Below, one piece after another: positions 13,534-37,785 of a stretch of DNA of 64,000 bases (the first letter of the stretch is position 1; each line of letters begins with the position of its first letter). Under the pieces are notes generated by a model that saw only the letters and a program-made list of their open reading frames with translations, was not told where the DNA came from and searched no databases. The position numbers were made by a program, and so were the translations under genes. The DNA lies in IMG/VR virus record IMGVR_UViG_3300043410_001663, positions 4,391 to 68,390 of that record; one strand, written 5' to 3'. The stretch is from a virus.

Positions 13534-14979
13534 CTACGCAGCGTATGGGTTATACGCGCGGCGTCGTGCGATGTCGTCCGAGTGCCCATAGTCACGAGAC
13601 GGCAGCGGGTCCAGCTCGAGCCAGCCTGAATCCCTGAGCACTCGCAAGGCCTGGGACAGCGCGTCCACGTAGTCATCGTGGCCCTTGGCCTCTGGAAAAG
13701 AACAGACCTGCCGAATGAAGCGCTTGGCCCAGGGGGCCACCTCTCCAGGGTTCTCGGGGTCCTCCGGGACATAAACGCGGCCCTTCGCGATGAGCGGCGC
13801 CACGATGTTCATCCGCTGGACCTTGTCCGCGCGGCCCGGGTTGTAGCTCATCACCGGCAGACCGGCCTGTTGGAGCTCCTGGAGCAACGAGATACCCGCC
13901 GATTTGTCTTCCATGAGGATCAGGTCCGTCTTTTTACCCTTCGCGAACGTGTTATCGGCGCCGTACACGACCTCCTTGTAGTCATCCGTCACTTTTCGGC
14001 GCAGTTCCGGGTAAGAGAGGTGGTTGTCCCATGAATCCATGAGCAGGGCGCACATTCCGCCGTCCATTTTCTCAAAAAGCCCCAAAACAATGCACGCCGT
14101 CGGGTCGTTATGGGTCTTTTCGCTCGTCGCGGGGTCGTATGACGCCAAAACGTACTCCAATTTCGGGGTCTCCTTCTCCGCCGGCCACATCTTGAACCAC
14201 TTCCGCTTCACGATACCCGCATTTTCGGGGTCCAGGATCTCGCCATAGATCTCCTGCTTGCCCAGATCGGTGCCTTCGTACGTCTCCAGCTGCTTGAAGA
14301 AGGTCGGGGAGAGGTTTTCCTTGTTGTCGTACGAGCTGGCGCGGCTGACGTACACGTCGCCGCCCACTTTTCCCTCGTTTAGGTCCGTAATTAGCTCGAG
14401 TGGCTTCGGAGTCGTGGTGATAATCGTCTGGACCCGCTTGATTCGGGGGTCCCTCAGACGCAAAGTGAACTGGATCTGGTCGTACGCGTCGTCAATGTAC
14501 TCAAACGCGCACAACTCGTCCATCCAGGCCCCGTGCCACTGTGTTCCCCGGAAGCGTTCCGGCTCAGATGCCGGGATTCCGCGGATCATTGAGCCGTTTT
14601 TCAGCGTCAACTCGAACAGCGACTTGTTGTAGTCCTTGATCAGCGACTGCGGGATAATGTTCAGTAAGCCTGAATCCCCCTCAAAACACGTCGCCCGGAT
14701 GTCGTTTGAGGTCGGCGCCGTCACCAACCACCGCGTGTGGTCGTAAATCGCGGCCCTCTCACCGATCCAGTTGCTCGCGGTGTGCGTCTTGCCCGATCCA
14801 CGACCAGCCAAGAGCAAGAATGTGTCATATTCCCCATCGTCCGGCTCCTTTTGGTGGGGCAGGGCGGTCATCGCCCACCTCACCCGCCACAACGCCAGGT
14901 CAAGTTGCTCCTTCGGCCAACCCTTGTTCTTCTCCGCGAACTCCTTCAAGAGCTTCGTCTGTTGCGCATTCATAGGCAT
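13534..14979 (-). CDS. terL: Terminase large subunit
   Basis: Walker A AGRGSGKT, Walker B AWMDE, TTTP coupling motif, nuclease YDPA...HDDYVDA. Confidence 0.95.
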   Translation of the reverse strand: MPMNAQQTKLLKEFAEKNKGWPKEQLDLALWRVRWAMTALPHQKEPDDGEYDTFLLLAGRGSGKTHTASNWIGERAAIYDHTRWLVTAPTSNDIRATCFEGDSGLLNIIPQSLIKDYNKSLFELTLKNGSMIRGIPASEPERFRGTQWHGAWMDELCAFEYIDDAYDQIQFTLRLRDPRIKRVQTIITTTPKPLELITDLNEGKVGGDVYVSRASSYDNKENLSPTFFKQLETYEGTDLGKQEIYGEILDPENAGIVKRKWFKMWPAEKETPKLEYVLASYDPATSEKTHNDPTACIVLGLFEKMDGGMCALLMDSWDNHLSYPELRRKVTDDYKEVVYGADNTFAKGKKTDLILMEDKSAGISLLQELQQAGLPVMSYNPGRADKVQRMNIVAPLIAKGRVYVPEDPENPGEVAPWAKRFIRQVCSFPEAKGHDDYVDALSQALRVLRDSGWLELDPLPSRDYGHSDDIARRRAYNPYAA

Positions 14980-15851
14980 ATCGGTAAATACCCCTCACTC
15001 ACTACCACCGTGTTGTTTGGGTTCTCGGTCTTGATGTAGATGCAGGGGCGTGGCTTGACCTCCTCCATCCGCTTGATGGTCCGGAACTCGTAGTAGAACT
15101 CTTTGCCGGTCGACGTCTGACCGTCAACCAGCTTCAAGAACGTCTTGAACTCAATGTGAAATTTATTTTGGCGACCGTGCTGCGTGATCTTGGTCGCGAC
15201 ACCCAGCGACTCGACCAGGTTCTGGACCTGGCGCAGGATCCCGTAGTCCCTGCTGTCAAAGAAGAACATCGCGTCCTTGGCCCGGAAGGTCCCGCGCTTG
15301 CTGAAGATGCCCCGCGCCAGTGCGAGCCTCTGCTCGAACGACCCAAAGAAGTACTCCTCGGGGATGGTCCGCGGGAGTGTCGGGTACTTCTCGATCAGCT
15401 GTCTGGTGATGTGGGTCTGCTTGTTCTGCCTGTTGCGGCTGCGCTCACAGATCCACTGGCCGAGGATGTATGGATCCACCGGCAGCTCCCTCTCCGGCAT
15501 CATGAGCGGGCGGCAGTTGATGATCCGGACCAGCTTCTCCTGTTCCATCAGCATCTCCGGGCTCATCGGTTGAGCCTCGAGCTCCTGGTGCCTGGACTTC
15601 TTGCGGGTCCACTTCCGCAAGATCTCGGTCTGCTTGTAGGTAAGAGCAGGGATTCCAGTGCGGCCGTCTACCACCAGCGTCAGGTCGTCCCTCATCCAGA
15701 GCTTGTAGCACGCCCGCGGCGTGAACTCCTGAGTTGAGACCACCTTCGTCGGTAGGCCATCGTATGAAAACACCGTATCCCCCGACTCGATAAGCGCCGC
15801 TGGTTTCCATCCGGTAACCGTAGGGACCGGGGTCCGTGCGTCGAATCCCAT
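14970..15851 (-). CDS. Free-standing intein-like (Hint + degenerate LAGLIDADG) protein lacking splicing residues
   Basis: N-terminal GFDARTPVPTVTGWK...GDTVFSYDG.PTKV, central IPEEYFFGSFEQRLALARGI, C-terminal PCIYIKTENPNNTVVVSEGYLP resemble intein blocks. Confidence 0.7.
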   Translation of the reverse strand: MGFDARTPVPTVTGWKPAALIESGDTVFSYDGLPTKVVSTQEFTPRACYKLWMRDDLTLVVDGRTGIPALTYKQTEILRKWTRKKSRHQELEAQPMSPEMLMEQEKLVRIINCRPLMMPERELPVDPYILGQWICERSRNRQNKQTHITRQLIEKYPTLPRTIPEEYFFGSFEQRLALARGIFSKRGTFRAKDAMFFFDSRDYGILRQVQNLVESLGVATKITQHGRQNKFHIEFKTFLKLVDGQTSTGKEFYYEFRTIKRMEEVKPRPCIYIKTENPNNTVVVSEGYLPICL

Positions 15852-15935
15852 GTCTGAATAGAATTACCCATTTCGGTGGCTGATTGCGCCCTTTATCCAG
15901 GGGTTTATTACAACATGCACTATAGTGCCGAGCGG

Positions 15936-16041
<106 letters not shown>

Positions 16042-16066
16042 TCACAAACAGCACTTTTTCCTTATA

Positions 16067-16079
16067 AATCAACAACTTA
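16067..16079 (+). promoter_or_regulatory. IHF binding site
   Basis: AATCAACAACTTA matches WATCAANNNNTTR exactly. Confidence 0.6.
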
Positions 16080-16264
16080 GCACGTCTCGCCTTGCTCTCC
16101 GGCCGATTCGTAAGGTAAAAGTATTACTTTTTTGCTGTGATATGCAAAAAATATATAACACAGGGGGATTTATATGAACTTGCTGTCTGTGGGGCCCCCC
16201 GCCCCGCCTCGCCGGATGGGACCCAAACTGGGGTGATGGGGGTCGTGTTGCGCAAAAACAACAA

Positions 16265-16494
16265 AGCAAGAAGCGTGCCACTTTTTCCGCAAGCAAGAAC
16301 CGTGCCAACCTGCTGACTGACCGGTCAGTCAGTAAGGCGCGGCGATCCTGGCACGAACATTGCAACGAAGCAAGAAGCGTGCCAACCCAGACTGGCACAC
16401 TGCTTGCTAATAGCAAGGACCGTGCCACCGCGGCCAAGCAAGGACCATGCCAACGTGGCGAGTGGGCGGCGCAGGCCAAGCAAGAACCATGCCA
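16265..16494. promoter_or_regulatory. Array of eight sigma54 (-24/-12) consensus sites
   Basis: TGGCAY-N5-TTGCW on minus at 16265, 16292, 16369, 16412, 16437, 16479 and on plus at 16349, 16393. Confidence 0.85.
16313..16332. promoter_or_regulatory. Perfect 20-bp palindrome (TetR-type operator-like)
   Basis: CTGACTGACCGGTCAGTCAG is its own reverse complement. Confidence 0.55.
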
Positions 16495-16558
16495 ACGTGG
16501 CCAGGGCGACCCAGTTTGGTGCGCACGCGAGGCGCCGGTGAGGGGAGGGCGCCGCATA

Positions 16559-16574
16559 CTGTACAAACGCCCAG
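16559..16574. promoter_or_regulatory. LexA SOS-box-like site
   Basis: (TA)CTGTACAAACGCCCAG vs beta/gammaproteobacterial CTGT-N8-ACAG, one mismatch. Confidence 0.45.
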
Positions 16575-16589
16575 GTCACGCGGCAAGAG

Positions 16590-16669
16590 TTATCCACAGC
16601 TTATCAACAGGCCAAGTTATCCACAGGTTGTTCACATGTTATCCACAGGTTGTTCACATGTTATCCACC
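16590..16669 (+). promoter_or_regulatory. Cluster of seven DnaA boxes
   Basis: TTATCCACA at 16590, 16617, 16639; one- or two-mismatch variants at 16601, 16628, 16650, 16661; mostly 11-bp period. Confidence 0.85.
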
Positions 16670-16739
16670 GCGCCAGGTAGCAGGCCAACCCCCACCCGAG
16701 ATGACCAGAATAGTATCAGCAACACACCAGGAGAACAGC

Positions 16740-16931
16740 ATGAAGACAACCAAGACCAGCCAAGGCGCATACAGTGTGACGGGCCACACCAAGGCCGGCG
16801 ACCTCGTCCAGTACGAGGTGGCACGCAACGGCCACGGATGGTCCGTCGATCTGGTGTATGGCAACGGCGCAGTGTTCAACATGCTGTACCCCACCAAGGC
16901 CGAGGCCATCGCGGCCATCGCCGGCCAGTGA
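16740..16931 (+). CDS. Early hypothetical protein
   Basis: ATG after repeat-borne CAGGAG; MKTTKTSQG... Confidence 0.75.
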   Translation: MKTTKTSQGAYSVTGHTKAGDLVQYEVARNGHGWSVDLVYGNGAVFNMLYPTKAEAIAAIAGQ

Positions 16932-16983
16932 ACCCCCACCCGAGATGACCAGATTAGTATCAGCAACACACCAGGAGAACGAC

Positions 16984-17223
16984 ATGATCGCAAAGAAGCA
17001 CATCAAGGCCATCAACGAACTGCTCAACAGCGAGTCCGCCGCGCAGTCCCTCATCGACCGCAGGGCCAGCGACCCAGGCATGACCCGCGAGCGCATGGCC
17101 CACTGGGTCGACCACGGCCGCCGCGCGGCCACCGAACTGATGGCCACGTACGGCATCCAGTCCAGCGCCGGTTCGATCGAGTACTGGGAGAGCATGGCGA
17201 TCCACTTCCCGCTCGCCGCCTGA
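16984..17223 (+). CDS. Early hypothetical protein
   Basis: ATG after repeat RBS; stop lies in the next repeat. Confidence 0.75.
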   Translation: MIAKKHIKAINELLNSESAAQSLIDRRASDPGMTRERMAHWVDHGRRAATELMATYGIQSSAGSIEYWESMAIHFPLAA

Positions 17224-17267
17224 ACCCCCACCCGAATTGACCAGATTAGTATCAACAGGAGAACGAC

Positions 17268-17728
17268 ATGACCACACTGACCCAAGCCACCTACGAGCGC
17301 ATGAACGACCTGCGGACCCAGGTCCGCAACGACCTGATGCGGGTCCAGCGCATGTTCAACAAGAACCCCAACGCCACCAACTGGGAGGTCTGCACCCGCG
17401 CCATGCTGGTGTTCCAGCAGGTGGACTGGGCCTGCCGCTCGAACATAGTCGACCACGTGGCGCTCCTCCTCGACCTGGACCACGCCACGGTCGGCGAGTG
17501 GGGCGACATCATCACCCGCGCCACCCTCGGGATGTCGGTCGCCAGCGCCCTCGCCTGAACCAGGGGCACGCCATGAAGACGATCACCATCCTGACCTACA
17601 CCGCCGGCCTGCTGGGCCTGACCAAGCACTGGCAACCGCTGTGCGACCTGACCTGGGACGAGTACGTGGCCCTGGCCGCCCGCCGCCCTGGTGAGGGCAC
17701 CACGTGGCGCGCGGTGTTCAAGGCCTGA
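17268..17728 (+). CDS. Two early hypothetical proteins (17268-17558, 17573-17728)
   Basis: RBS-linked ORFs with high GC3 between repeats 3 and 4. Confidence 0.7.
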
Positions 17729-17780
17729 ACCCCCACCCGAGAAGACCAGAGTAGTATCACCAACCACAACGGAGCACACC

Positions 17781-18274
17781 ATGCAGACAGCCTACATCAA
17801 CCTGATCAAGCACGCACTCAGCGAGGGCCACACCGTGTCGGTGTGGGACGGCGAGGAGTGGCAGGTCAAGCGGTCCACCAGCCTGCGCGCCATCACTGAG
17901 GCCGTGAAGTCGGTCGAGGAGGCCACGTTGCGCATCCGCAACCAGGACGGCGACGTGGTGGCCTGGGCCCTGGTCTCAGCGTACGGTCTGGCACCGGACG
18001 AGACCGTGATCGACTACGGCGACAACGACTGGACCAACGCGTGGTTCGTGAACTACAGCAAGACCCAGGAGGCCTGACCATGCGGACCAACATCAACCGG
18101 CCCTGGGTGGCCCACGTGGACGACGAGCGGGACATCGGCAACAGCGTGATCGTGACCCTGGCGCCGGGATGGTTTTTCAAGGGCACCGACGAGGGAGTGC
18201 GCGGGTACGATACCATGCGCGAGGCCAAGGCGGACACCGTGCGCGCCAACGTGGAGAACCCCCACCCGAATTGA
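17781..18274 (+). CDS. Two early hypothetical proteins (17781-18077, 18080-18274)
   Basis: RBS-linked ORFs; the second ends inside repeat 5 (...NPHPN*). Confidence 0.7.
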
Positions 18275-18309: not shown

Positions 18310-19053
18310 ATGACCAAGCCCACCGGATTCACCATCTACCAAGGTCCCAGCATGATCGACGGCACGCCCATCGTGGCCATCGCCCTCCTCGGGTCATCGA
18401 ACCGCAAGACGGGTAACATGGTCCAGACCTATATCCTGCGCCAGGACATGCGTCCCGTCCAGGCGGTCCAGACCGGCGCGGACGTGGCCATCTGTGGCGA
18501 CTGCAAGCACCGCCCGTCCAACGGTGGCGCGTGCTACGTGGTCGTGGCCCAGGGCCCGACCGTGGTGTTCAAGACCTGGGTGGCAGGCAAGTACCCCACA
18601 GCATCCGCCACTGAGGTCGGCCAGATGGTCGCAGGCCGCATGGTCCGACTGGGCACCTATGGCGACCCCGCCGCCGTGCCCGCCGATGTGTGGGAGAACC
18701 TGACGGCCCTGGCCGCAGGCCGCACCGGGTACACCCACCAGTGGCGCAACCCGGCCCTGTCGGCCGACCACCGTGCGCGCATCGTGCGCCTGTGCATGGC
18801 ATCGGTCGACAACGCACTCGAGGCCCAGGAGGCCCGCACCAGTGGCATGCGTTACTTCCGCATCCGCACCGCGGACGAGGTGGTCGGCCAGGGTGAGTTC
18901 GTGTGCCCGGCCAGCGCCGAGGGCGGCATGCGCAAGCTCTGCACCACCTGCGGCGCCTGCAACGGCACGACCAAGGCGACCGGCGCCAGCCCGGTGATCA
19001 TCGTCCACGGCAACAAGGCCAGCCGGTTCACCACCCAGCGGGCGGCGGCCTGA
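18310..19053 (+). CDS. Cys-rich early protein, possibly Fe-S/metal binding
   Basis: CGDCKH, CYV, RLGTYGDP, GYTHQW, CPA, CTTCGAC motifs. Confidence 0.75.
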   Translation: MTKPTGFTIYQGPSMIDGTPIVAIALLGSSNRKTGNMVQTYILRQDMRPVQAVQTGADVAICGDCKHRPSNGGACYVVVAQGPTVVFKTWVAGKYPTASATEVGQMVAGRMVRLGTYGDPAAVPADVWENLTALAAGRTGYTHQWRNPALSADHRARIVRLCMASVDNALEAQEARTSGMRYFRIRTADEVVGQGEFVCPASAEGGMRKLCTTCGACNGTTKATGASPVIIVHGNKASRFTTQRAAA

Positions 19054-22896: not shown

Positions 22897-23409
22897 ATGG
22901 CACTCACACCTGATCAGGAAAAAGAGCTCGCGGCGATGGCCCAGGCCGGCGACGAGGAGGCCCTAGAATCGTTTTTTCAGGCCAACCGGGGCCTAGCCCT
23001 GTACGTGGTCCAAAAAATGCCCCAGTGGGCCGTAGAATCGGCCATGACCCGTGATGACCTGATCCAGGAGGCCTACATCGCCCTGGTCCACGCGATCCAG
23101 ACCTGGAAGCCCAAGAAGCGATTCGCGACCTATGCCCAGAAGGTGATCATGGGCCGGGTGCGGCGCGCGGTGGAGAACGGGAGCCAGATGATCAGGATCC
23201 CGGTACCGGTCCAGGAGGACATCCGCAAGATCAAGTCGGCCCAGTCCAAGTTGCACCAGCTACTGGGACGTGAGCCCTCACTGACCGAGGTGGCCCAACT
23301 ACTGGATGAGCATACAGACTGGGTGAAGGATAGAATCGTGGTAAGCCAGCGCCAGCCGGTGAGCCTGGACGCGTACAAGCGGGACAACCTATCGGAGGAG
23401 TCGGAATGA
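22897..23409 (+). CDS. Sigma70-family sigma factor, regions 1.2-3 only (no region 4)
   Basis: LTPDQEKELA..AQAGDEEA, DDLIQEAYIAL, RFATYA, IRIPV, LGREPSLTEVA, PVSLD, then stop. Confidence 0.85.
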   Translation: MALTPDQEKELAAMAQAGDEEALESFFQANRGLALYVVQKMPQWAVESAMTRDDLIQEAYIALVHAIQTWKPKKRFATYAQKVIMGRVRRAVENGSQMIRIPVPVQEDIRKIKSAQSKLHQLLGREPSLTEVAQLLDEHTDWVKDRIVVSQRQPVSLDAYKRDNLSEESE

Positions 23410-26400
23410 AGCTATATGACGTGCCGCGTAATACGCGGGTTAGGGTGGTGGAGACGGGGGAGGAGTACAACTTCGACCACATCGACGGGATGTATTCCTA
23501 CTGCACCGACGACGAGGGCAACGTGGCCCACCTAGTCGCCTGGGAAGACGTGGAGGTGGTCCATGATCGTTGAAGCCGCACGACAGGCGCTGTACTTGCT
23601 GGAAGAATTTGTTGATGACCCGAGATGCCAAGGACAAATTGATGCCACCAGCATTGCCCTACGCCAAGCCATAGAGCAGGCTGAGAAGCAGGAGCCGGTG
23701 GCGTGGTTTTCGCCCTCTGGTAATTTGTATCGCTCTCGGTATCACGCAGTCGCTAACGGAGAACAGGTTGTAACCCCACTCTACACCAACCCACCCACAG
23801 CACCTGCGCAGGAGCCGATTGCCTGGATTGAGCGAGACATGATGTGCGATGAGTTTGATCCAGCCAGCGTGACCTGTAAAAAGTCTGACACAGCAACCGA
23901 TGGATGGGAGTGGGTTCCGTTGGTTCTTGCCACAGCACCTGTGCAGGAGAAGAACAATGGATAGTTTTCTTTTGTGGGTAATCATGATCCTGCTCGCGTA
24001 TATCGGTGATACACTGCGCAACATGCACAACACGATCAAGGAGAAGTTATGAACCACGCAGACATCCAGCGCCCTATCGCAACGGGGGTCACGTCACCCC
24101 GCGAGTGGAGGGACCTCACGCAGAACCAGATCGAGTACATCCTCTCGGAGTACGACATGTTCTACCAGAACGACATCTTCGTCACCGACGTGATGGAGAT
24201 CATCGCCACCGTGCGTCAACTGTTGAAGGAAATGAACACGTGAGCATGATGGCCATCAAGGAGGTCCTCCAGCACGGGCCGCTGTCTGTCAGGGAGATGG
24301 TTGAGCTGTTGGGCCAGGCGCGCGTCGCGCTGAACAAGAGCCTGCGCCGGCTGAGAGACCGCAAGCAGGTCTACATCTGCGCCTGGGAGCGCCAACCGGA
24401 GGGCCACCAGGGTGCGTTCGTGCCGTACTACACGCTCGGCGACGAGCCCGACGCGCAACGCCCCAAGGCGCTGACGGTCTCGGAGCGCAACAAGGAATAC
24501 CGGCGGCGTCATCAAGCCGCTATCTCAGCAAGACGCTACCCTCACCTGCGCGAGACGCTGGGTGTCTGGGCAGGACTAGGAGGACGATGATGAAAGCAAT
24601 TGTCAAACGCATCAACCGCATGACGATCGAGGAGTTTGCTACCCAGCACGATCTGATACTACGGGTAACCGAGCGAGAAGCCGCGTATGCAGCTCCCGGG
24701 AAATGGTACTGCTATTTCCCAGAGATCGAGATTAAAAAAGGGGGCGTGCTCGAGAGCGGTTCAGGTGACGGTGACACAATCAATGACGCCATCTTCAACT
24801 ACTGCGAAATCCTAAGCAACAAGCGGGTGGTGTACAAAGCGTTCACGCCCAGCCGCGCGGAGTTTACAATGCCCGAGCTGACACCCATCTACACACTGGA
24901 GGAAATATGAGTCTGGACGTTTACCTCGAGCAGTCGGTGTTCACCCGCAACATGACGCACAACCTTGCAGAAATGGCTGACCACGCAGGCGTATATGATT
25001 GCATCTGGCGCCCCGATGAGAACAACATCTACGAGGCCAGCGAGCTGGTCACTCCCTTGGCCAAGGGGCTGTCGCTACTGCTGAGTGACCCCGAGATGTT
25101 CAAGCGATACAACCCCGAGAACGGGTGGGGCTCGTACGATACCCTTGTCCGTTTCGTGGCGGAGTACCTCCAGGGTTGCATCAACCACCCAGACGCACGT
25201 GTGAGGGTCAGCCGATGAAACGAGCACTCAGCGCGACATTACTGACCCTATCCCTGTACGCCAACGCGGAGTTCATGACGGGCCGCACGCTGCTGGCCAG
25301 GATGAACGGGGACGCCGCGGATCGTGCCAACGCCGTGGGCTACATAGTGGGGGTCGCAGATACACTGATGGGCGAGGTCAGCTGCCCTCCCCACGGCCTC
25401 ACATCGGGCCAGTTAGCCAGTGAGGTCCGCAAGGTCCTGGAGGAGAACCCGGACAAGCTGTCTGTCAGCGCGGACGTATTCGTGCACGCGGTTATGCTAA
25501 AATGGCCGTGCAGTAGTGGCAGAAAGGTTACCGCATGAAACGAGAAGAGTTAGAGCAGATCGCCAAGATGGCCGGGGCGCTGTTGGTGTATAATCCACAC
25601 GGCGGCCCCATCATGGCCGACAACCTCGACCTGATGAAGTTCTCAACGTACCTCGAGGGGTGCCTGAGACTGGACGTCATCAGCGAGATCATGGAGCTGG
25701 GTCCGCAGGCGAGCCTGGAAGACATTCTGGTTCACATCTCAAGGGGATAAAGATGATTTTCACAACGGGTATCGGTTTGATTTGCGCCGGCTGGTGGCTG
25801 GCGTGGTTCTTTGGCGACTGGCACAACATGGAGCGCAACTGGTGCGACAAGATTGGCGGCGCGCTGTTCGGCATTGGCCTGGGGCTGTCACTCAGCTCGA
25901 TGATCATCGCCGCGATCAAGTACATGCCATGAGCGGGAACCTGATCATATTGACGGGCGTGATCTACGCCTATGTCGCCGTTGAGCAGGGGCTCAAGGGC
26001 AACATGGGGATGCTGATCGCATACGCCGGGTACGCGTTCGCCAACGTGGGCCTCTACCTGATGGTGACGAAATGAAGTTCAGAAAGAAGCCAGTAGTTAT
26101 TGAGGCCACGCAATGGTTTAGATACGGGGATCATCCGAAGGTTAAGATTCGATATAAACACGCAGATGATGATGAGCATTGGAATCCAACCATTCCAACT
26201 GGTGAAGGCTGGATAAAAACGCTAGAAGGTGAAATGCTTGTTACCCCGGGCGATTGGATCATCACCGGCGTGAAGGGGGAGCACTACCCGTGCAAGCCCG
26301 ACATCTTTGAGGCAACCTACGAGAGGGTCGAACAATGAAGATCGAGATATGCGGCGAGTGTGCCAGCAAGCTGGTCGCGCAGGACCTCAAAGAGGTCTAT

Positions 26401-36799: not shown

Positions 36800-37470
36800 T
36801 GAGTCCGGGGTCGCGCCCCGGATAGGTCAGCCCGGCCGAGTAGAAGGGACAACCCGGTGGGAAGCTCGGGGCCAATAAGTTTGGGGATCGCGCAACGGGT
36901 TAGCGCCGTTGCAGTTCTTTGATCCTTTCTTCAAAACACTGCTTTATGTGGGCGGTCTCCAAACTTGTTGGTAAAAGGGCCTAGTCAGCCCAACCTTTGC
37001 CGCGTGGTTAACGCGGAAAGCGGACAGGTAAATCCCACTGACAATGGGCAAGCCGGAAAAGTGTTCGCAAGCTGGGAGGTTACCCTACGACCCAGCACCA
37101 ACGTGAGTGAGGATTGAACGTACCAGCCACCCCTGAAAGGTGGGGCTCTGGTGGAAAGCGTTACCTGGTAACCAATGCCAGCAGTCCTCACCCATGTTGG
37201 TGTATGAGGTTCTAGTCAAACCGCGGTACTGATCACCGTAGCCTAATTCAGTTAAGGGCCACGCAACCGATGACAACGGTTCGCCAACAACCAACAAAGA
37301 AGGTGTTTAGCCAAGGCGCAGTCCCGTGAGCGGGGACTGAATCAATGCTGAGGTCGGGCGTGCGTCACCACGCCGGGGGCTATATCCTGTAGACACTTTC
37401 TTTGTTGGTGGTTAAGCGTGTTGACGCATGGCCCATAGCCATGAAGGTCGGCGCCCACCAACAACATTAT
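36800..37470 (+). ncRNA. Non-coding tract of multiple structured RNA elements
   Basis: About 20-bp closing stems at 36872/36971 and 37096/37202, 9-bp stem at 37403/37463, many hairpins, no convincing ORF. Confidence 0.55.
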
Positions 37471-37485
37471 CAACTGGAGATTCGT

Positions 37486-37785
37486 ATGAATTTTGGACAC
37501 GCAATTGAGGCCCTGAAAGCGGGCAAACGAGTGACGCGCGCAGGCTGGAACGGCCGAGGCATGTTCCTGATCCTGGCCGGTGGCTACAAGGTCCCCAAAA
37601 GCGCACTGCGCGCGGGAGGCCCCATCACCGCTGAGTTCCTGGAATCACGCGACCTGGAAGAGATGGAGATCCTTCCGCACATCGACATGTGGACCGTCAA
37701 CGCGCAGGGGCGTCAAGCGTATTTGCCTGGGTGGCTTGCCAGCCAGACCGACATGCTGTCTGACGACTGGGAAACCTTGGAGTAA
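37486..37785 (+). CDS. DUF2829 / Tad2-like anti-defence nucleotide sponge
   Basis: MNFGHAIEALKAGKRVTRAGWNGRGMF...WLASQTDMLSDDW. Confidence 0.8.
   Translation: MNFGHAIEALKAGKRVTRAGWNGRGMFLILAGGYKVPKSALRAGGPITAEFLESRDLEEMEILPHIDMWTVNAQGRQAYLPGWLASQTDMLSDDWETLE

Follow-up and report, generated by a model that had tools for sequence, protein, structure and literature searches.

Clustered sigma-54-like sites in the divergent control region of a freshwater phage and their occurrence in other viral DNA

We found that the intergenic region from which the early and late operons of a freshwater phage diverge contains eight near-identical sites that satisfy the sequence definition of sigma-54 promoters, and that this signal, in the form of dense arrays and face-to-face pairs, is far more common in viral than in bacterial DNA. 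The factor that binds these sites is most likely, to judge from their sequence and distribution, the host sigma-54 RNA polymerase holoenzyme and not a lineage-specific phage protein; we describe them here as sigma-54-like sites and do not file them as proven promoters.

The array and its surroundings

The window, i.e. the whole stretch of DNA that was analysed, comprises 64,000 bases of an IMG/VR virus record that is complete at 68,390 bases, and its genes are those expected for a lytic tailed phage. The late block lies on the minus strand, starting at 15851 with the terminase genes, which are followed by those for portal, capsid and tail fibre, and it continues round the end of the record to the lysis and further virion genes (63941-43225). 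The early/replication block occupies the plus strand from 16740 to 43185 and includes genes for a sigma-70-family factor, a primase/D5-type helicase, an SNF2 helicase, an exonuclease, a gp2.5-like SSB, a ribonucleotide reductase and a DNA polymerase. The sigma factor has regions 1.2-3 and lacks region 4, and the N-terminal primase region of the primase/D5-type helicase matches the PDB primase chain 7OLA, a SaPI primase-helicase that recognises its origin. Since 15852-16739 is the sole divergent intergenic region of the phage genome, the control of both early and late genes must be located there. The host is probably a member of the freshwater Burkholderiales, a guess based on two faint hints, namely a 75-bp match to a Burkholderia phage and one early protein with its best named homologues in Burkholderia and Variovorax.

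The 64-kb window contained eight exact matches to TGGCAY-N5-TTGCW, all within 16265-16494 (Table 1); the six minus-strand matches point to the late operon and the two plus-strand ones to the early operon. The sites, their number and their strands are as the original prediction had stated. In shuffled sequence the mean was 0.26 matches and the maximum 2, with eight reached in none of 100 shuffles, and the whole 68,390-bp record contained neither a copy outside the array nor a match to the same pattern read backwards. With up to two mismatches to the extended pattern, 28 matches were found against 31.4 expected, and at zero or one mismatch the eight sites of the array were the only ones recovered. 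All eight have the -24 GG and the -12 GC at the fixed spacing of the consensus TGGCAC-N5-TTGCW and agree with the secondary positions of the sigma-54 consensus, i.e. a purine, mostly G, at -20 (G in seven of the eight, A in one), W at -11 and Y at -27. Both plus-strand sites face a minus-strand site at the distances of 4 and 3 bp that had been predicted. The accompanying claim that the two members of a pair are not both productive at once is reasonable, and the face-to-face pair turned out to be the typical unit in the relatives of this phage; pair B, for example, is conserved in L009 and L012. The direct spacing of sites 1 and 2 belongs to a range, 25-29 bp, that was found again in unrelated phages. 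Transcription from site 1 is predicted to start at about 16254, some 400 nt ahead of the ATG at 15851.

Table 1. Features in and around the array of sigma-54-like sites (positions in the window)
Feature	Position	Strand	Remark
N-terminal terminase-like ORF, first gene of the late block	14970-15851	-	faced by the six minus-strand sites
T-rich / A40 tract	15960-16010		between terminase gene and array
Conserved non-coding element	16160-16262	-	between A/T tract and array; alignment of 19 sources
GTTCATATAAAT	16168-16179	-	within conserved element; candidate -10-only late promoter
Inverted repeat (10 bp), left arm, CCAAACTGGG	16223-16232		
Sigma-54-like site 1, TGGCACGCTTCTTGCT	16265-16280	-	faces late (terminase) operon
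Sigma-54-like site 2	16292-16307	-	27 bp from site 1, direct orientation
Perfect 20-bp palindrome, CTGACTGACCGGTCAGTCAG	16311-16330		inside array
Face-to-face pair A	16349-16364 / 16369-16384	+ / -	4 bp between
Face-to-face pair B	16393-16408 / 16412-16427	+ / -	3 bp between
Sigma-54-like site 7, TGGCATGGTCCTTGCT	16437-16452	-	
Sigma-54-like site 8, TGGCATGGTTCTTGCT	16479-16494	-	
Inverted repeat (10 bp), right arm, CCCAGTTTGG	16510-16519		
DnaA-box array	16590-16669	+	early side of sigma-54-like array
First early ORF, 63 aa	16740-16931	+	preceded by GGAGAA; faced by the two plus-strand sites

From the late to the early side, the region consists of the terminase start, the A40 tract, a conserved leader, the array, a group of DnaA boxes and the first early ORF. 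The original prediction had mentioned neither the DnaA boxes nor the conserved leader, nor that the motif is widely distributed. The conserved element in the leader comprises a GC-rich run and CACCCCAnTTnGGGTCCC, and also contains a candidate late promoter of the -10-only type, which may suit the sigma factor without region 4 that the phage itself encodes. On the other side, three perfect copies of TTATCCACA and two boxes with one mismatch (five in the scan in total), plus two copies of TTGTTCACA, share one orientation with a period of mostly 11 bp. DnaA boxes and an A/T-rich tract are both present, as in iteron-type origins, and the region may well hold a replication origin even if the 16-mers are not iterons; the clearest case of DnaA boxes beside A/T-rich DNA is the relative L090. 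The palindrome inside the array may serve as a site for an activator or enhancer; outside the window, its sequence turned up solely in contigs of the two closest relatives. A search of 15700-16900 against Rfam gave only sub-threshold matches, on the A/T hairpin. No RNA data set was listed for 15000-18000 of the window, and contigs of four sequencing runs showed no usable starts or ends; in a run labelled metatranscriptomic and marked as probably DNA, a low-depth contig ends at 15855.

Two elements of the original prediction need revision. The 10-bp inverted repeat said to bracket the array is present at the positions given (Table 1), but its arms are not jointly conserved; the right arm is absent from the two closest relatives and the left arm is part of the separately conserved element, so the bracketing is probably incidental. 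A roadblock between early and late transcription, which had been offered as one possible function, does not fit because the two operons diverge from the region and neither transcribes across the array.

Conservation within the phage group

Using the 481-aa terminase as the query, we collected 191 relatives from IMG/VR and kept 80 loci, with identities of 74-97%. Upstream DNA of at least 2500 nt was available for 28 loci, of which 25 had three or more sites (at most one mismatch) within 300 bp and the other three had one or two sigma-54-like sites; most of the 52 loci with shorter flanks stop short of the region. The commonest layout in the relatives was not a row of promoters but strictly alternating orientation (+-+-+-), in which successive starts are about 20 and 23 bp apart and the repeated unit is a 35-bp face-to-face pair, TGGCAYG-N4-TTGCT-N3-AGCAA-N4-CRTGCCA, with a period of 43 bp. 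Among 163 distinct sites of the group (at most one mismatch), mismatches fell at T(-26) 24 times and at T(-15) 11 times, the GG and GC were invariant or nearly so (162-163 of 163), the base after TGGCAY, for which no selection had been made, was G in 146, and the spacers between the blocks varied freely. A mismatch profile of this kind has the shape of the sigma-54 promoter logo.

These data bear on whether the array might be a repeat of recent duplication that has no function and resembles the sigma-54 consensus only by chance. The copies share bases beyond the consensus (CTTGCTT and GCCACGT flanks), as recent duplicates would, their number differs between co-occurring strains, and some chance look-alikes are to be expected of a finding picked from a very large scan. 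However, the core has been kept while the spacers diverged across relatives with 74-97% terminase identity, and the motif is massively enriched over control patterns in unrelated viral contigs, leaving this explanation highly improbable.

The more distant sister clade, with terminase identities of 75-77%, had one to three exact sites per locus, all directed toward the late genes (L079 and L086-L091), and in the rest of the region a different palindrome, GTTAGTGAGCGCTCACTAAC, was repeated four to five times at intervals of 39-42 bp. Palindromes of this alternative type were found together with sigma-54-like sites in L055, L090 and L091 and are therefore not allelic replacements of them. One relative with a full flank, L080, had no sigma-54-like site in the region. 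Other modules were variable, including DnaA boxes (in the window, L012, L069 and L090) and Fur-box-like sequences (in L022, L028, L040, L080 and L091). Palindromes that change beside a constant sigma-54 module look like exchangeable enhancers.

Outside the group, no nucleotide match to the region was found in the cultured phage collection. The nearest cultured terminase relatives, which are Caulobacter phages with 40-42% identity, and a contig from Manatee Spring (terminase 53%) have another layout with no array upstream of the terminase, and for two further array-bearing loci no cultured relative with an array was found. A DUF7227/GP88-like early protein was considered as a partner of the array, since its gene is next to the array in the closest relatives and close to a pair in two contigs of unrelated phages, but was set aside; it belongs to a very large family with 5217 matches and is absent from the flanks of those sister-clade loci that have 4.5 kb upstream.

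Distribution in viral and bacterial DNA and the likely binding factor

Scanning for the face-to-face pair (TGGCAY-N5-TTGCW, 2-5 bases, WGCAA-N5-RTGCCA) revealed at least 123 stretches in IMG/VR, with GC contents of 29-65% and many of them unrelated to this phage, and the reversed pair pattern, used as a control, gave none. Tandem sites 20-50 bp apart were present in at least 124 stretches, compared with 5 for the complemented control. Among the pair-bearing contigs listed were some of jumbo size (128-480 kb), as well as a distinct group in which three pairs follow each other at a 47-bp period. In contrast, a bacterial genome collection of 596 Gb, about eight times larger than the viral one, yielded only 32 stretches with the pair, and 8 of the 31 distinct bacterial pairs, including all four from actinobacteria, were plain hairpins with complementary spacers. 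The density of the pair is at least 30-fold higher in viral than in bacterial DNA. In the 147 distinct viral pairs, complementarity between the N5 spacers was at chance level (26, 59, 46, 13, 3 and 0 pairs with 0, 1, 2, 3, 4 and 5 complementary positions, respectively), indicating that the viral pairs are not hairpins but sets of four short contact blocks, and only the -24 and -12 blocks were conserved. Five large array-bearing contigs had 9-19 exact sites each, with none for the reversed control, mostly in one or a few 2-5 kb stretches rich in small ORFs. Among the arrays, dense spacings of 25-29 bp and of 19-21 bp were observed.

The free base following TGGCAY in the viral pairs (n=294) was G in 177, A in 109, C in 5 and T in 3, i.e. 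60% G and 37% A. This purine preference at -20 equals that of Salmonella sites defined by ChIP, since a by-eye count of the 29 intergenic ChIP-chip sites listed in that report (PMC3844500) gave G in 19 and A in 10. By the same by-eye count, 10 of those 29 listed sites conform to the strict pattern TGGCAY-N5-TTGCW, compared with all eight of the array (PMC3844500), and the array sites are therefore predicted to be very strong binders.

The phage itself appears to supply neither the binder nor its activator. Searches for a sigma-54 DNA-binding or core-binding domain encoded by the phage found none, so the candidate binder is a host factor. The original prediction had recognised no enhancer-binding ATPase in the window, and a search of the whole phage genome bore this out, with no match to the Sigma54_activat domain (PF00158) at E<=1. 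PF00158 and PF04552 were likewise absent from all five of the large array-bearing contigs.

A different protein might nevertheless bind the 16-mers, for instance a replication initiator for which they are iterons, a small terminase using them as a pac or cos site, or a repressor on 35-bp palindromic operators. Dimeric DNA-binding proteins typically have sites like these, palindromes of 35 bp repeated at a regular 43-bp period, and 43-bp units are likewise found in F sopC. The surrounding region resembles an origin, with its DnaA boxes, A/T tract and GC-rich element; the phage encodes the primase/D5-type helicase with similarity to 7OLA; the array is directly upstream of the terminase genes; in the sister clade GTTAGTGAGCGCTCACTAAC takes most of the array positions at its own 39-42 bp spacing; and the dense spacings of 25-29 and 19-21 bp would suit something smaller than RNA polymerase. 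Against this, the same blocks with free spacers recur in unrelated phages over the whole GC range and in several clusters per genome in jumbo contigs, and the -20 purine preference is that of real sigma-54 sites in the Salmonella data (PMC3844500). A tblastn comparison of the 232 ORFs of the window with 283 array-bearing loci detected shared proteins almost only within the phage's own group. The alternative palindromes, moreover, coexist with sigma-54-like sites, and the ends of the relatives' contigs are scattered over the homopolymer tract and repeats with no common terminus. We consider binding by another protein unlikely.

Two special cases are each at odds with part of the observations. 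For iteron-type origin repeats, the motif is common to unrelated contigs of 29-65% GC, its copies have mixed orientation and a 43-bp period, and shared proteins were detected almost only within the phage group. A terminase recognition site (pac/cosB) would adjoin the terminase genes, as the array does, but the contig ends scatter, and other phages have several clusters of sites per genome.

One motif that is spread across unrelated phages differing so widely in GC content, often at several loci per genome, cannot be explained by a lineage-specific initiator, terminase or repressor. To our knowledge, sigma-54 with core RNA polymerase is the only factor with such a bipartite specificity across most bacterial phyla. 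The recurrence in unrelated contigs against controls, together with the -20 preference, suggests that these are genuine-looking sigma-54 sites and not iterons of a phage protein, in agreement with the original prediction.

Possible functions and comparison with known systems

Sigma-54 promoters are normally single, occur in bacteria and have a dedicated activator. The array shares with bacterial sigma-54 (RpoN) promoters of the glnAp2, pspA and Pu type the -24 GG and -12 GC at exact spacing, and it matches TGGCAYG/A-N4-TTGCW, including the purine at -20 and W at -11, as do sites in the Salmonella study (PMC3844500). It differs from them in having eight copies in 230 bp, many of them face-to-face or 25-27 bp apart, in lying in a phage without an activator gene or recognisable enhancer, in its predicted leaders of 320-400 nt, and in the face-to-face layout, which is rare in bacterial genomes (the 32 stretches in 596 Gb).

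The leading reading, which we hold tentatively, is that the sites are enhancer-dependent, partly bidirectional promoters or sites of holoenzyme capture. The eight sites would provide high-affinity docking points for the host sigma-54 holoenzyme between the early and late operons, of which six would drive the late (terminase, structural and lysis) block and two the early block. A face-to-face pair would form a compact bidirectional unit, in which each start, about 12 nt past the GC, would fall inside the partner site and run outward, the two predicted starts being about 18 bp apart. Lacking an activator ATPase of its own, the phage would need an enhancer-binding protein of the host, or an unrecognised phage factor, for opening, and reliance on a host activator would couple phage transcription to a host physiological signal. 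Clustered copies with perfect consensus would help to compete for scarce holoenzyme, and the idea that extra sigma-54 sites aid holoenzyme capture has also been raised in the Salmonella report (PMC3844500). That the holoenzyme binds, that transcription starts at the sites and what acts as the activator are all inferred.

Several observations argue for promoters or capture sites. Both diverging operons have the array on their upstream side, the sister clade's exact sites uniformly face the late genes, and in 8 of 12 unrelated loci inspected, all of which had been chosen for their arrays, the ORFs flank the array divergently, where promoters would be expected. Other observations argue against it. 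Neither the phage nor any of the other five large array-bearing contigs has a PF00158 domain; no enhancer site was recognised in the region, although candidate palindromes are present; pair members 3-4 bp apart should exclude each other, and two polymerases would have little room at direct spacings of 25-29 bp; the leaders would be long, with about 400 nt ahead of the terminase ORF and some 320 nt ahead of the first early one, and would cross the conserved GC-rich element and the T40 run; a separate candidate late promoter, GTTCATATAAAT, exists alongside a phage sigma factor without region 4; and L080 has no sigma-54-like site in the region. Orientation in unrelated phages, a weak test, showed no promoter-like bias: for tandem clusters and naively called ORFs, 25 of 51 clusters had their nearest downstream ORF on the same strand, 20 on the opposite strand and 6 had none, and in a stricter version, also weak, 7 of 48 clusters agreed in strand, 7 disagreed and 34 were undecided. 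In one jumbo contig, tandem triplets appear to oppose the flanking ORFs.

The face-to-face pair may be compared with the bidirectional sigma-70 promoters that Warman et al. reportedly described in 2021, in which symmetric -10 elements give outward starts about 18 bp apart. The distance between outward starts, predicted in the case of the pair, is alike in both, whereas the sigma-70 type has one shared symmetric element and the pair consists of two full 16-bp sites head to head for the other sigma family.

Non-productive docking, in which the array would bind sigma-54 holoenzyme or free sigma-54 without firing, is a live but less probable alternative. In one form, the sink of the original prediction, hundreds of genome copies with eight sites each would soak up scarce holoenzyme and thereby damp the pili, flagella, nitrogen and stress operons of the host; in the other, the bound complexes would be architectural in a control or origin region. 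Sigma-54 holoenzyme is known to bind DNA in an inactive state, according to two reports (PMC4591121; PMC3844500), and the array sites are all at the extreme of the consensus, compared with only 10 of the 29 listed intergenic Salmonella sites, counted by eye (PMC3844500). Further points in favour of docking are the presence of sites in both orientations, the absence of an activator gene from the phage and the five other contigs, the lack of a promoter-like orientation bias in unrelated phages (in the weak test above), the triplets opposing their flanking ORFs, and the at least 30-fold denser pairs in viral DNA, which argue that this is not an ordinary host promoter layout. Relatives also cluster sites for other host factors in the same region, i.e. 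the DnaA boxes and Fur-like boxes. However, pairs with sites only 2-5 bp apart cannot be occupied at both members, so no capacity is gained from them; tandem sites set well apart would make a better sponge, and pairs fit a bidirectional promoter better. The position of the arrays between divergent ORFs and the orientation of the distant clade's few exact sites toward late genes also count against docking.

The most far-reaching version is a phage-specific DNA device spread over the phages of many bacterial phyla, in which clustered, mutually exclusive pairs would trap scarce sigma-54 polymerase on replicating DNA and so rewire the host pili, flagella, nitrogen and stress regulons without a phage protein; we regard it as unlikely. 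The host-encoded 6S RNA, which traps sigma-70 holoenzyme, would be a counterpart. If the sink were true, both would be nucleic-acid mimics sequestering an RNA polymerase holoenzyme, 6S RNA being a host RNA acting on sigma-70 and the array double-stranded phage DNA acting on sigma-54 holoenzyme.

Arrays of repeats are also known from iteron and centromere regions (lambda ori, RK2 oriV and F sopC), which likewise have repeats of 16-35 bp with a regular period, DnaA boxes and an A/T-rich stretch; iteron sequences, however, are lineage-specific, whereas the motif of the array is common to unrelated phages and equals a host promoter consensus. Non-promoter and intragenic sigma-54 sites of Salmonella and E. 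coli resemble the array in that they may bind without obviously serving a gene, and interference, antisense RNA and a faster promoter search are among the roles proposed for them in the Salmonella work; as described in these reports (PMC3844500; PMC4591121), they are single, often degenerate and intragenic, whereas the sites in the phage are clustered, of perfect consensus and intergenic.

A precedent among phages is the lytic Pseudomonas siphophage YuA, which is reported to have a sigma-54-like promoter with partial dependence on host sigma-54; the passage on it describes one such promoter region (P015) with no mention of an array or face-to-face pairs (PMC10914365). No sequence relationship of YuA to this phage was found in the phage collection. 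The phage phi1422 is mentioned as carrying a gene for a sigma-54-type regulator (PMC3391216). In the full-text literature searched, no description of tandem or face-to-face arrays of sigma-54 sites in phages was found.

Taken together, the data point to a widespread and undescribed way for phages to engage the host sigma-54 polymerase, and none of the six genomes checked, this phage and the five large contigs, encodes an activator. If the sites are promoters, many uncultured phages would tie their central control region to the enhancer-dependent polymerase and so to host physiology, for example nitrogen or envelope stress; if they form a sink, phages would carry DNA decoys for the enhancer-dependent polymerase. 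Either would be new, and the array provides a simple sequence signature for locating control regions in the genomes of uncultured phages.

Sequence variation within and in place of the array

We found that the content of the sigma-54-like array differed among the window and its two closest relatives, L009 and L012. In addition, contigs of two runs had the 27 bases between the first two repeats exchanged for 61 different letters, and therefore the array content also differs among co-occurring strains. Other sequences occur at or beside the array position in further terminase-relative loci. Specifically, AATGATAATCATTCTCATT and similar sequences, resembling the Fur box consensus, were located in L091 and L080 and beside the arrays of L022, L028 and L040; in several relatives such Fur-box-like sequences lie at the edge of the array that faces the early genes, and none was found in the window. 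A second repeat family, with 4-5 copies of a palindrome spaced at 39-42 bp, takes the array position in the sister clade (terminase identities of 75-77%) and co-occurs with sigma-54-like sites, and this family could be an enhancer for an activator.

Exact sigma-54-like sites were also present in large unrelated viral contigs (9-19 each in G001, locus L219; G002, L220; G004, L222; and G005, L221 and L224), mostly clustered in non-coding gaps separating small ORFs. In G005, they included three tandem triplets, apparently directed against the flanking ORFs.

Features near the array and elsewhere in the window and its relatives (window coordinates unless a locus is named)
Feature	Position	Strand	Description
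Large terminase	13534-15851	minus	in two ORFs
A/T tract	15960-16010		T-rich stretch, then about 40 consecutive A; between array and terminase gene
Conserved non-coding stretch	16160-16262	minus	GGGGGGCCCC run, CACCCCAnTTnGGGTCCC, then CAGCAAGTT
Candidate -10-only promoter	16168-16179	minus	GTTCATATAAAT
Strain exchange in array	16264-16290
DnaA-box run	16590-16669		single orientation, mostly 11-bp period; directly upstream of first early gene
DUF7227/GP88-like protein	18310-19050	plus	Cys-rich early protein, 247 aa
Sigma-70-family protein	22897-23409	plus	170 aa; regions 1.2, 2 and 3 present, without region 4
Rap1a-like domain protein	25125-25538	plus	early gene
Tad2-like domain protein	37402-37785	plus	early gene
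Fur-box-like sequences	L091 2577-2600; L080 2561-2591, 2724-2754
Second repeat family	L086 2565-2795; L090 2665-2845; also L021, L055		palindrome GTTAGTGAGCGCTCACTAAC and variants

Conserved leader, A/T tract and terminase

Arrays excepted, the conserved stretch listed in the table is the best conserved non-coding part of the aligned region, being alignable in most of the 19 aligned sources. It contains a sequence that looks like a -10-only promoter, exact copies of which were confined to the window, L009 and L012. The sigma-70-family protein of the phage probably serves middle or late promoters lacking a -35 element. The length class of the A/T tract is kept throughout the phage group, and about 15 of the 53 contig ends from relatives lie in or at its equivalent, indicating that this tract breaks assemblies. 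The terminase is divided into a 293-aa N-terminal terminase-like piece, with a weak, sub-threshold match to LAGLIDADG_3, and a 481-aa ORF, which overlaps the first by 10 nt and has complete Terminase_6N and 6C domains; a similar split appears in the annotation of Caulobacter phage RW.

Early genes and DnaA boxes

The DUF7227/GP88-like protein has 5217 homologues, and in L009 and L012 its gene is the first early gene adjoining the array. Two unrelated low-GC contigs (L144 and L136) also carry a homologue, 0.7-1.2 kb from a face-to-face pair of sigma-54-like sites. The early genes further include one for a protein with a Tad2-like domain (Thoeris anti-defence) and another whose product has a Rap1a-like immunity-protein domain.

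Scanning the window for DnaA boxes revealed three perfect copies of TTATCCACA, all inside the run upstream of the early genes, which holds two further copies with one mismatch and, additionally, two TTGTTCACA. Relatives L012, L069 and L090 had two to three boxes each at varying positions, those of L090 following an A/T-rich stretch, as in the oriC layout. The DnaA-box region may contain the replication origin or a DnaA-regulated promoter.
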